From the NCBI RefSeq assembly GCF_030384885.1, contig NZ_CP128613.1: 64,000 nt of DNA. One strand, given 5' to 3'. Positions 22,731 to 23,117 of the stretch are shown piece by piece. Under the pieces are notes generated by a model that worked only from the letters and a program-made list of their open reading frames with translations, made no database searches and was not told the DNA's origin. The position numbers and the translations under genes are program-made. Origin of the DNA: Escherichia coli (GTDB lineage: Bacteria; Pseudomonadota; Gammaproteobacteria; Enterobacterales; Enterobacteriaceae). How positions within the stretch are numbered: position 1 is the first letter of the stretch; every line of letters begins with the position of its first letter.

Positions 22731-23117
22731 TTAACGATACTTCTGGTGATAGGCGTTGCGGGTCGTTTTCAGTTGCTCTGCGGCAGCCTGCGCTTCTTTT
22801 ACTTTACCTTCATTAGCCAGCTTCAGCGCGTCGTCAATCTGACCGACCAGAATGTCGAAACCGTGGCGGAAGTCTTTCATCTCCGGGCTGTCTGGCGATT
22901 TGCCTTCAAGCTTCGGCGGCGTTGCTTTTTGCGCATCCAGCGCCGCTGCGCGCATTTTGGTTAACGCGTCTTTGACTTGCGCCGCGTTATCGGCTTTTTC
23001 GACCACTTTTAAATTGTCGTTGAGGGTTTCCATATTGTCTTCAAGATCAGCGGCAAACGACGCCGAACTGAATACCAACGAGGAGACTGCAAGAATAGCT
23101 AACAGGCTTTTACGCAT
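22731..23117 (-). CDS. cybC: Soluble cytochrome b562 precursor (intact, with signal peptide)
   Basis: 128-aa ORF; mature part [16 protein letters not shown]...NAYHQKYR matches classical cytochrome b562. Confidence 0.92.

Follow-up and report, generated by a model that had tools for sequence, protein, structure and literature searches.

The question raised by the gene for cytochrome b562, cybC, in this stretch of Escherichia coli DNA (64,000 nucleotides in all, hereafter the window) is whether it is an intact gene, and whether its state sets the window apart from the K-12 laboratory lineage. A sequence-only reading had proposed that a full cybC precursor, signal peptide included, is encoded at 22731-23117, had set against this a copy in K-12 MG1655 that is a truncated pseudogene, and had taken the intact gene to mean that this is not an MG1655-type sequence. 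The analysis reported here leaves little room for doubt that the interval carries a wild-type, functional cybC allele encoding the precursor of soluble cytochrome b562, and that the contrast with K-12 is real.

The list of open reading frames contains only one frame with exactly these bounds; it lies on the minus strand, starts with ATG and comprises 128 codons (Table 1). The profile searches confidently assigned its product to the Pfam family PF07361 (Cytochrom_B562; E=5.8e-34, 117.2 bits against a cut-off of 30 bits, profile positions 1-102 of 102) and to NF011632, the NCBIfam equivalog for 'cytochrome b562' (193.7 bits, cut-off 130 bits, model positions 1-127 of 127). This assignment agrees with the alignment to a solved protein, 9tmp_A in the PDB ('Soluble cytochrome b562', 128 residues), with which the window protein shares 126 of 128 residues over positions 1-128. 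The two mismatches, V39 (I in 9tmp_A) and G72 (D in 9tmp_A), which are V17 and G50 of the mature protein, fall at documented natural polymorphic positions (PMC6561927). The idea that the interval is a chance open frame, or is read on the wrong strand, has nothing in its favour: overlapping plus-strand ORFs of 88 and 142 aa do exist, but they are unsupported antisense shadows, while the minus-strand frame is backed by family E-values from 1e-34 to 1e-57 and by a solved protein with 98% identity, and on the Pfam, NCBIfam and 9tmp_A matches this explanation was rejected outright. Three lines of evidence, the ORF, the family profiles and 9tmp_A, bear out the full precursor with a signal peptide that had been read from the letters. 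At the DNA level, the gene matches the cybC annotated in E. coli 2013C-4282 (protein WP_001232246.1) with 100% identity; since this protein is annotated in three strains that differ in their local gene arrangement, the allele is a common one.

Table 1. Positions of cybC, its parts and the neighbouring features in the window.
Feature	Coordinates	Strand	Basis
cybC CDS (cytochrome b562 precursor, 128 aa + stop)	22731..23117	-	ORF list, profile matches, structure alignment
Signal peptide, residues 1-22	23052..23117	-	mature PDB chains start at residue 23
Mature cytochrome b562, 106 aa	22734..23051	-	alignment to solved chains
26 bp GTGAGCAATGCGTAAAAGCCTGTTAG (sense), present in the window, deleted in K-12	23099..23124	-	alignment with K-12 GM4792
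Shine-Dalgarno core GGAAG, 6-nt spacer to ATG	23124..23128	-	read from sequence
Terminator-like hairpin (11 pairs) with CGCTTTCTTC tail	22698..22723	-	consensus match only
pmbA-cybC spacer, 52 bp, short form	23118..23169		
GC-rich spacer hairpin GGCGCG-N6-CGCGCC	23147..23164	.	terminator scan and folding
Orphan RelB/DinJ antitoxin gene, 79 aa	22301..22540	-	Pfam RelB 7.6e-16; NCBIfam NF008412, 128 bits

The processing of the precursor can be read from the same alignments. Residue 23 of the query corresponds to residue 1 of the mature 106-residue chains 1apc, 256b and 1qpu, and because these chains begin there, the cleavage site is fixed after SFA (Ala22), so that the mature protein begins with ADLEDN and runs to the C-terminus NAYHQKYR. 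The presequence (residues 1-22) is the same as that of 9tmp_A and is made up of a positively charged n-region (R2, K3), a hydrophobic core and the S-F-A cleavage motif. The precursor residues M29 and H124 line up with identical residues in 9tmp_A and in the 106-residue PDB chains; from established knowledge of PDB 256B we take them to be the axial ligands of the heme (Met7 and His102 of the mature protein). By identity to the known protein, the 22-residue Sec-type signal peptide would direct export to the periplasm and be cut off after Ala22; the mature protein of 106 residues, given its 98% identity to solved structures, would fold as a four-helix bundle, is predicted to bind one non-covalent heme b via Met7 and His102, and would act as a one-electron carrier. 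Its apo mass is expected to be about 11.7 kDa, and I39V and D72G would place its peak about 72 Da below that of the P0ABE7-type protein, for which m/z 11783 is reported (PMC6561927). The role of b562 has been described as 'electron transport of unknown function' (PMC6561927).

The comparison with K-12 was based on a 900-bp query around cybC. The alignments of the K-12-type records (GM4792, BW25113, MC4100) cover query positions 422-798 and break off at window position 23098, 19 nt before the start codon is reached, because K-12 is without the 26 bp listed in Table 1. The deletion, whose junction in K-12 reads AAAAAAGGAA|CTATTCTTG, extends from within the Shine-Dalgarno sequence across the ATG and codons 2-6 to one base beyond; the window retains all of this and hence does not carry the K-12-type pseudogene allele. 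In the curated MG1655 record (NC_000913.3), cybC (b4236) is entered as a 368-bp pseudogene whose first position coincides with the deletion junction, so the statement that MG1655 has a truncated pseudogene proved correct, and alignment to reference cybC alleles, the check that had been suggested for it, found the K-12 gene neither identical (94.4% identity) nor intact. In K-12 laboratory strains the deletion strips the gene of its translation start and the signal peptide of its charged N-terminus, and no b562 is made as a consequence.

The label 'pseudogene' for K-12 cybC is nevertheless dependent on annotation, since PGAP calls a CDS with an ATT start in the remnant. In the PGAP records of K-12 derivatives this CDS of 366 nt and 121 aa is named 'cytochrome b562' (WP_023649327.1; in GM4792 at L001 1510..1875) and carries no pseudo flag. 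Thus, it could be argued that K-12 cybC is translated from ATT into a protein of 121 aa and that the contrast between intact gene and pseudogene is an artefact of annotation; ATT is an allowed, if rare, start codon in table 11, and the remnant, with 186 bits, still passes the 130-bit cut-off of NF011632. We consider this extremely unlikely. With the ATG and half of the Shine-Dalgarno sequence deleted, just 2 nt separate the residual GGAA from the ATT; the frame, read upstream, meets a stop codon eight codons before the ATT, and it offers no ATG, GTG or TTG between that stop and Met7 of the mature protein; and the charged n-region residues R2 and K3 are missing from what remains of the signal peptide. 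Besides the curated verdict on MG1655, published observations point the same way: the passage of PMC13041623 that cites Trower (1993) has it that K strains do not express b562, the cybC transcript is much lower in MG1655 than in the B strain REL606 (PMC3446290), and the Keio cybC knockout serves as a pseudogene control (PMC6945024). The K-12 gene is therefore best regarded as a pseudogene, and the window gene as its intact counterpart.

How widespread each state is was determined in a census of 5,426 complete E. coli genomes, 5,425 of which were matched by the 900-bp query. Two diagnostic queries were used, each able to seed a match in one allele class only, namely a 44-mer centred on the K-12 junction and a 66-mer centred on the 26 bp absent from K-12. 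The former was found in 355/5,426 genomes, in all of them with 100% identity over its full length, and the latter, which marks the intact 5' end, in 5,068/5,426 (93%); together these make 5,423, the count of genomes with any cybC match. Sixty of the 355 junction-positive entries, sampled across the ranking, were inspected, and all 60 are recognisable K-12 laboratory derivatives or are K-12-like from their O16:H48 serotype and genome size; among them are MG1655, BW25113, DH5alpha, DH1, HMS174, C600, J53, MC4100, TG1, RP437, S17-1, NEB strains and O16:H48 isolates. Judged from these genome sequences, an intact cybC is the norm of the species, the majority and the ancestral state, while the 26-bp deletion is, by the 60 carriers sampled out of 355, apparently confined to K-12-type genomes. 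The remaining 7% comes from laboratory K-12 strains being over-represented in the set of complete genomes.

The possibility that the K-12 allele is a divergent oddity was considered and rejected, as apart from the deletion its body is 99.5% identical to the O157:H7 allele. One sampled O157:H7 strain has an intact cybC start, and these two observations together show the K-12 deletion to be a recent lesion in an ordinary allele. The gene has also been lost in another way: in CFSAN027343 (NZ_CP037943.1, L006 1..2810) it is split near codon 27 by ISEc22, an element of the IS66 family. This independent loss and the viability of T7 Express delta-cybC (PMC13041623) both fit a dispensable cybC. The record NZ_OY754853.1 shows the same two-place match pattern as CFSAN027343. 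Three of the places matched by cybC lie on plasmids instead of chromosomes.

Comparison at a larger scale agrees with the assignment of the window outside K-12. The 24 kb at 11000..35000 match a single continuous segment of E. coli 2013C-4282 (NZ_CP027579.1), a strain from human stool in the USA, at 100.0% identity; the second-best genome reaches 99.0%, and only 9 records reach at least 99%. The local gene order in 2013C-4282 is nrdD, nrdG, relB, cybC, pmbA, yjgA, and the synteny nrdD-nrdG-(relB)-cybC-pmbA-yjgA, with cybC between pmbA (tldE) and nrdG, is conserved across the strains compared. The evidence firmly supports a window that is not K-12, and the junction census and the intact 5' end uphold the earlier use of cybC as a sign of this, with the reservation that an intact gene is a weak lineage marker, because it is the default of the species and excludes only K-12.

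The Shine-Dalgarno core GGAAG is kept in strains A4 and 746, and the terminator-like hairpin downstream begins 8 nt after the stop codon. The leader of cybC is no more stably folded than shuffled sequence (z = -0.03). An Rfam E-value scan of 22200..23400 returned a lone match (E=0.79, 18 bits against a gathering score of 50 bits), which was rejected as a known RNA family and is a chance match to a hairpin. The GC-rich hairpin in the spacer between pmbA and cybC is conserved in K-12, A4 and 746. On the strand of cybC and pmbA, the sequence behind it is AAATCTT, without a U-tract, which makes the hairpin a poor terminator in that direction and, as a prediction, read-through from pmbA into cybC plausible. 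Read on the plus strand (23147..23171), the hairpin GGCGCGGCAGGTCGCGCC is followed by TTTTTTT, which makes it a classical intrinsic terminator. It faces antisense to cybC and pmbA, no plus-strand gene that it would serve is apparent, and it may block antisense or read-through transcription from the nrdDG side.

In 3,886 of the 5,426 genomes (72%), including K-12, O157:H7 and strain 746, the spacer contains an additional segment of ~145 bp, located between the pmbA hairpin and the ribosome-binding site of cybC, which the window is without; the roughly 1,500 genomes that share this absence make up a common short form. The segment was rejected as a mobile repeat (MITE, REP or ERIC), as it occurs in exactly one place per genome in these 3,886 genomes, and it is therefore a single-copy indel polymorphism. 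It possibly contains the cybC promoter. This raises the question whether the window gene could be intact and yet transcriptionally silent, the short 52-bp spacer having perhaps no promoter of its own; the absence of the segment would fit such silence, as would a simple scan of 22250..23500, which found no sigma-70-like promoter. However, the same scan also found none in the long-spacer form of strain 746 and is thus uninformative here, the short form is common and its ORF is intact in both examples examined (the window and strain A4), and read-through past the hairpin behind pmbA is plausible on the cybC strand. A silent gene is therefore unlikely, and the functional allele remains the preferred reading; we assume that its transcription would continue from pmbA or start at a non-consensus promoter.

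On its other side, cybC is neighboured by an orphan relB gene, which directly adjoins the stop codon of nrdG and lies 190 bp from cybC. Strain 746 has relB-relE; compared with it, the window has lost 283 bp between two copies of an 8-bp direct repeat, TCATCCAG (junction at 22305..22312), and with them nearly all of relE. The deletion leaves of relE only ATG-AGT-GAC-TAA (M-S-D-stop), and changes the C-terminus of RelB from ...RLDEL in strain 746 to ...RLDE. The junction of this deletion occurs in only 13/5,426 genomes, and relE is kept beside nrdG in at least 307. Just upstream of relB, at 22565..22610, there are nested palindromes, TGTAATGCATTATAGCATTACATATGCATTACA, part of which the terminator scan scored as a hairpin; they look like a RelB operator/promoter region, to go by their sequence. 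The absence of the ~145-bp segment, together with an orphan relB, 190 bp away, whose toxin gene has been precisely excised, could be taken to mean that cybC in the lineage of the window is wired differently from most E. coli, in its regulation and not in the gene itself. Its expression might then rest on read-through from pmbA, or be influenced by RelB as a repressor together with the palindromic operator. We regard such altered wiring as very unlikely.

Both the intact gene and the K-12 defect are already known, the defect of K strains since Trower (1993), and it is curated in the MG1655 record. For the window itself, the result adds little beyond bookkeeping, i.e. that it is E. coli of the natural-isolate type, as 2013C-4282, and not K-12. 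The mildly useful yield of the check consists of the exact deletion coordinates, the census of 355 against 5,068 genomes and the finding that PGAP masks the K-12 lesion. The deletion junction can serve as an exact and easily scored K-12 marker (355/5,426 complete genomes), and since PGAP leaves the remnant unflagged, automated pan-genome comparisons would miss the difference in cybC. The native protein also has some applied interest: when anti-BRIL Fabs are purified from expression strains of the B lineage, b562 comes along with them (PMC13041623).

Among the known systems, the closest is the cytochrome b562 of the B strain (UniProt P0ABE7; PDB 256B, 1APC, 1QPU and 9TMP; the parent of BRIL), with which the window shares the gene, the length of 128 aa, an identical signal peptide, the cleavage site and both heme ligands (126/128 residues), and from which it differs at residues 39 (V, not I) and 72 (G, not D). 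The K-12 remnant cybC' (b4236) occupies the orthologous locus, between pmbA/tldE and nrdG, its mature-protein region is still open, and it is 94.4% identical in DNA over the shared 377 bp; it differs from the window in the loss of the 26 bp at 23099..23124 and in three residues (G72, A122 and Q125 in the window; D72, S122 and K125 in K-12). The two loci are also reversed in their surroundings, K-12 having the ~145-bp segment between pmbA and cybC and no relB insert, and the window having the insert without the segment. Finally, the solved homologue 4er9_A (a chain of 131 aa) aligns over its full length, including the signal peptide, and belongs to the same family, but it differs in about 15% of residues, which makes it an orthologue from another species, presumably Salmonella, and not the same allele.
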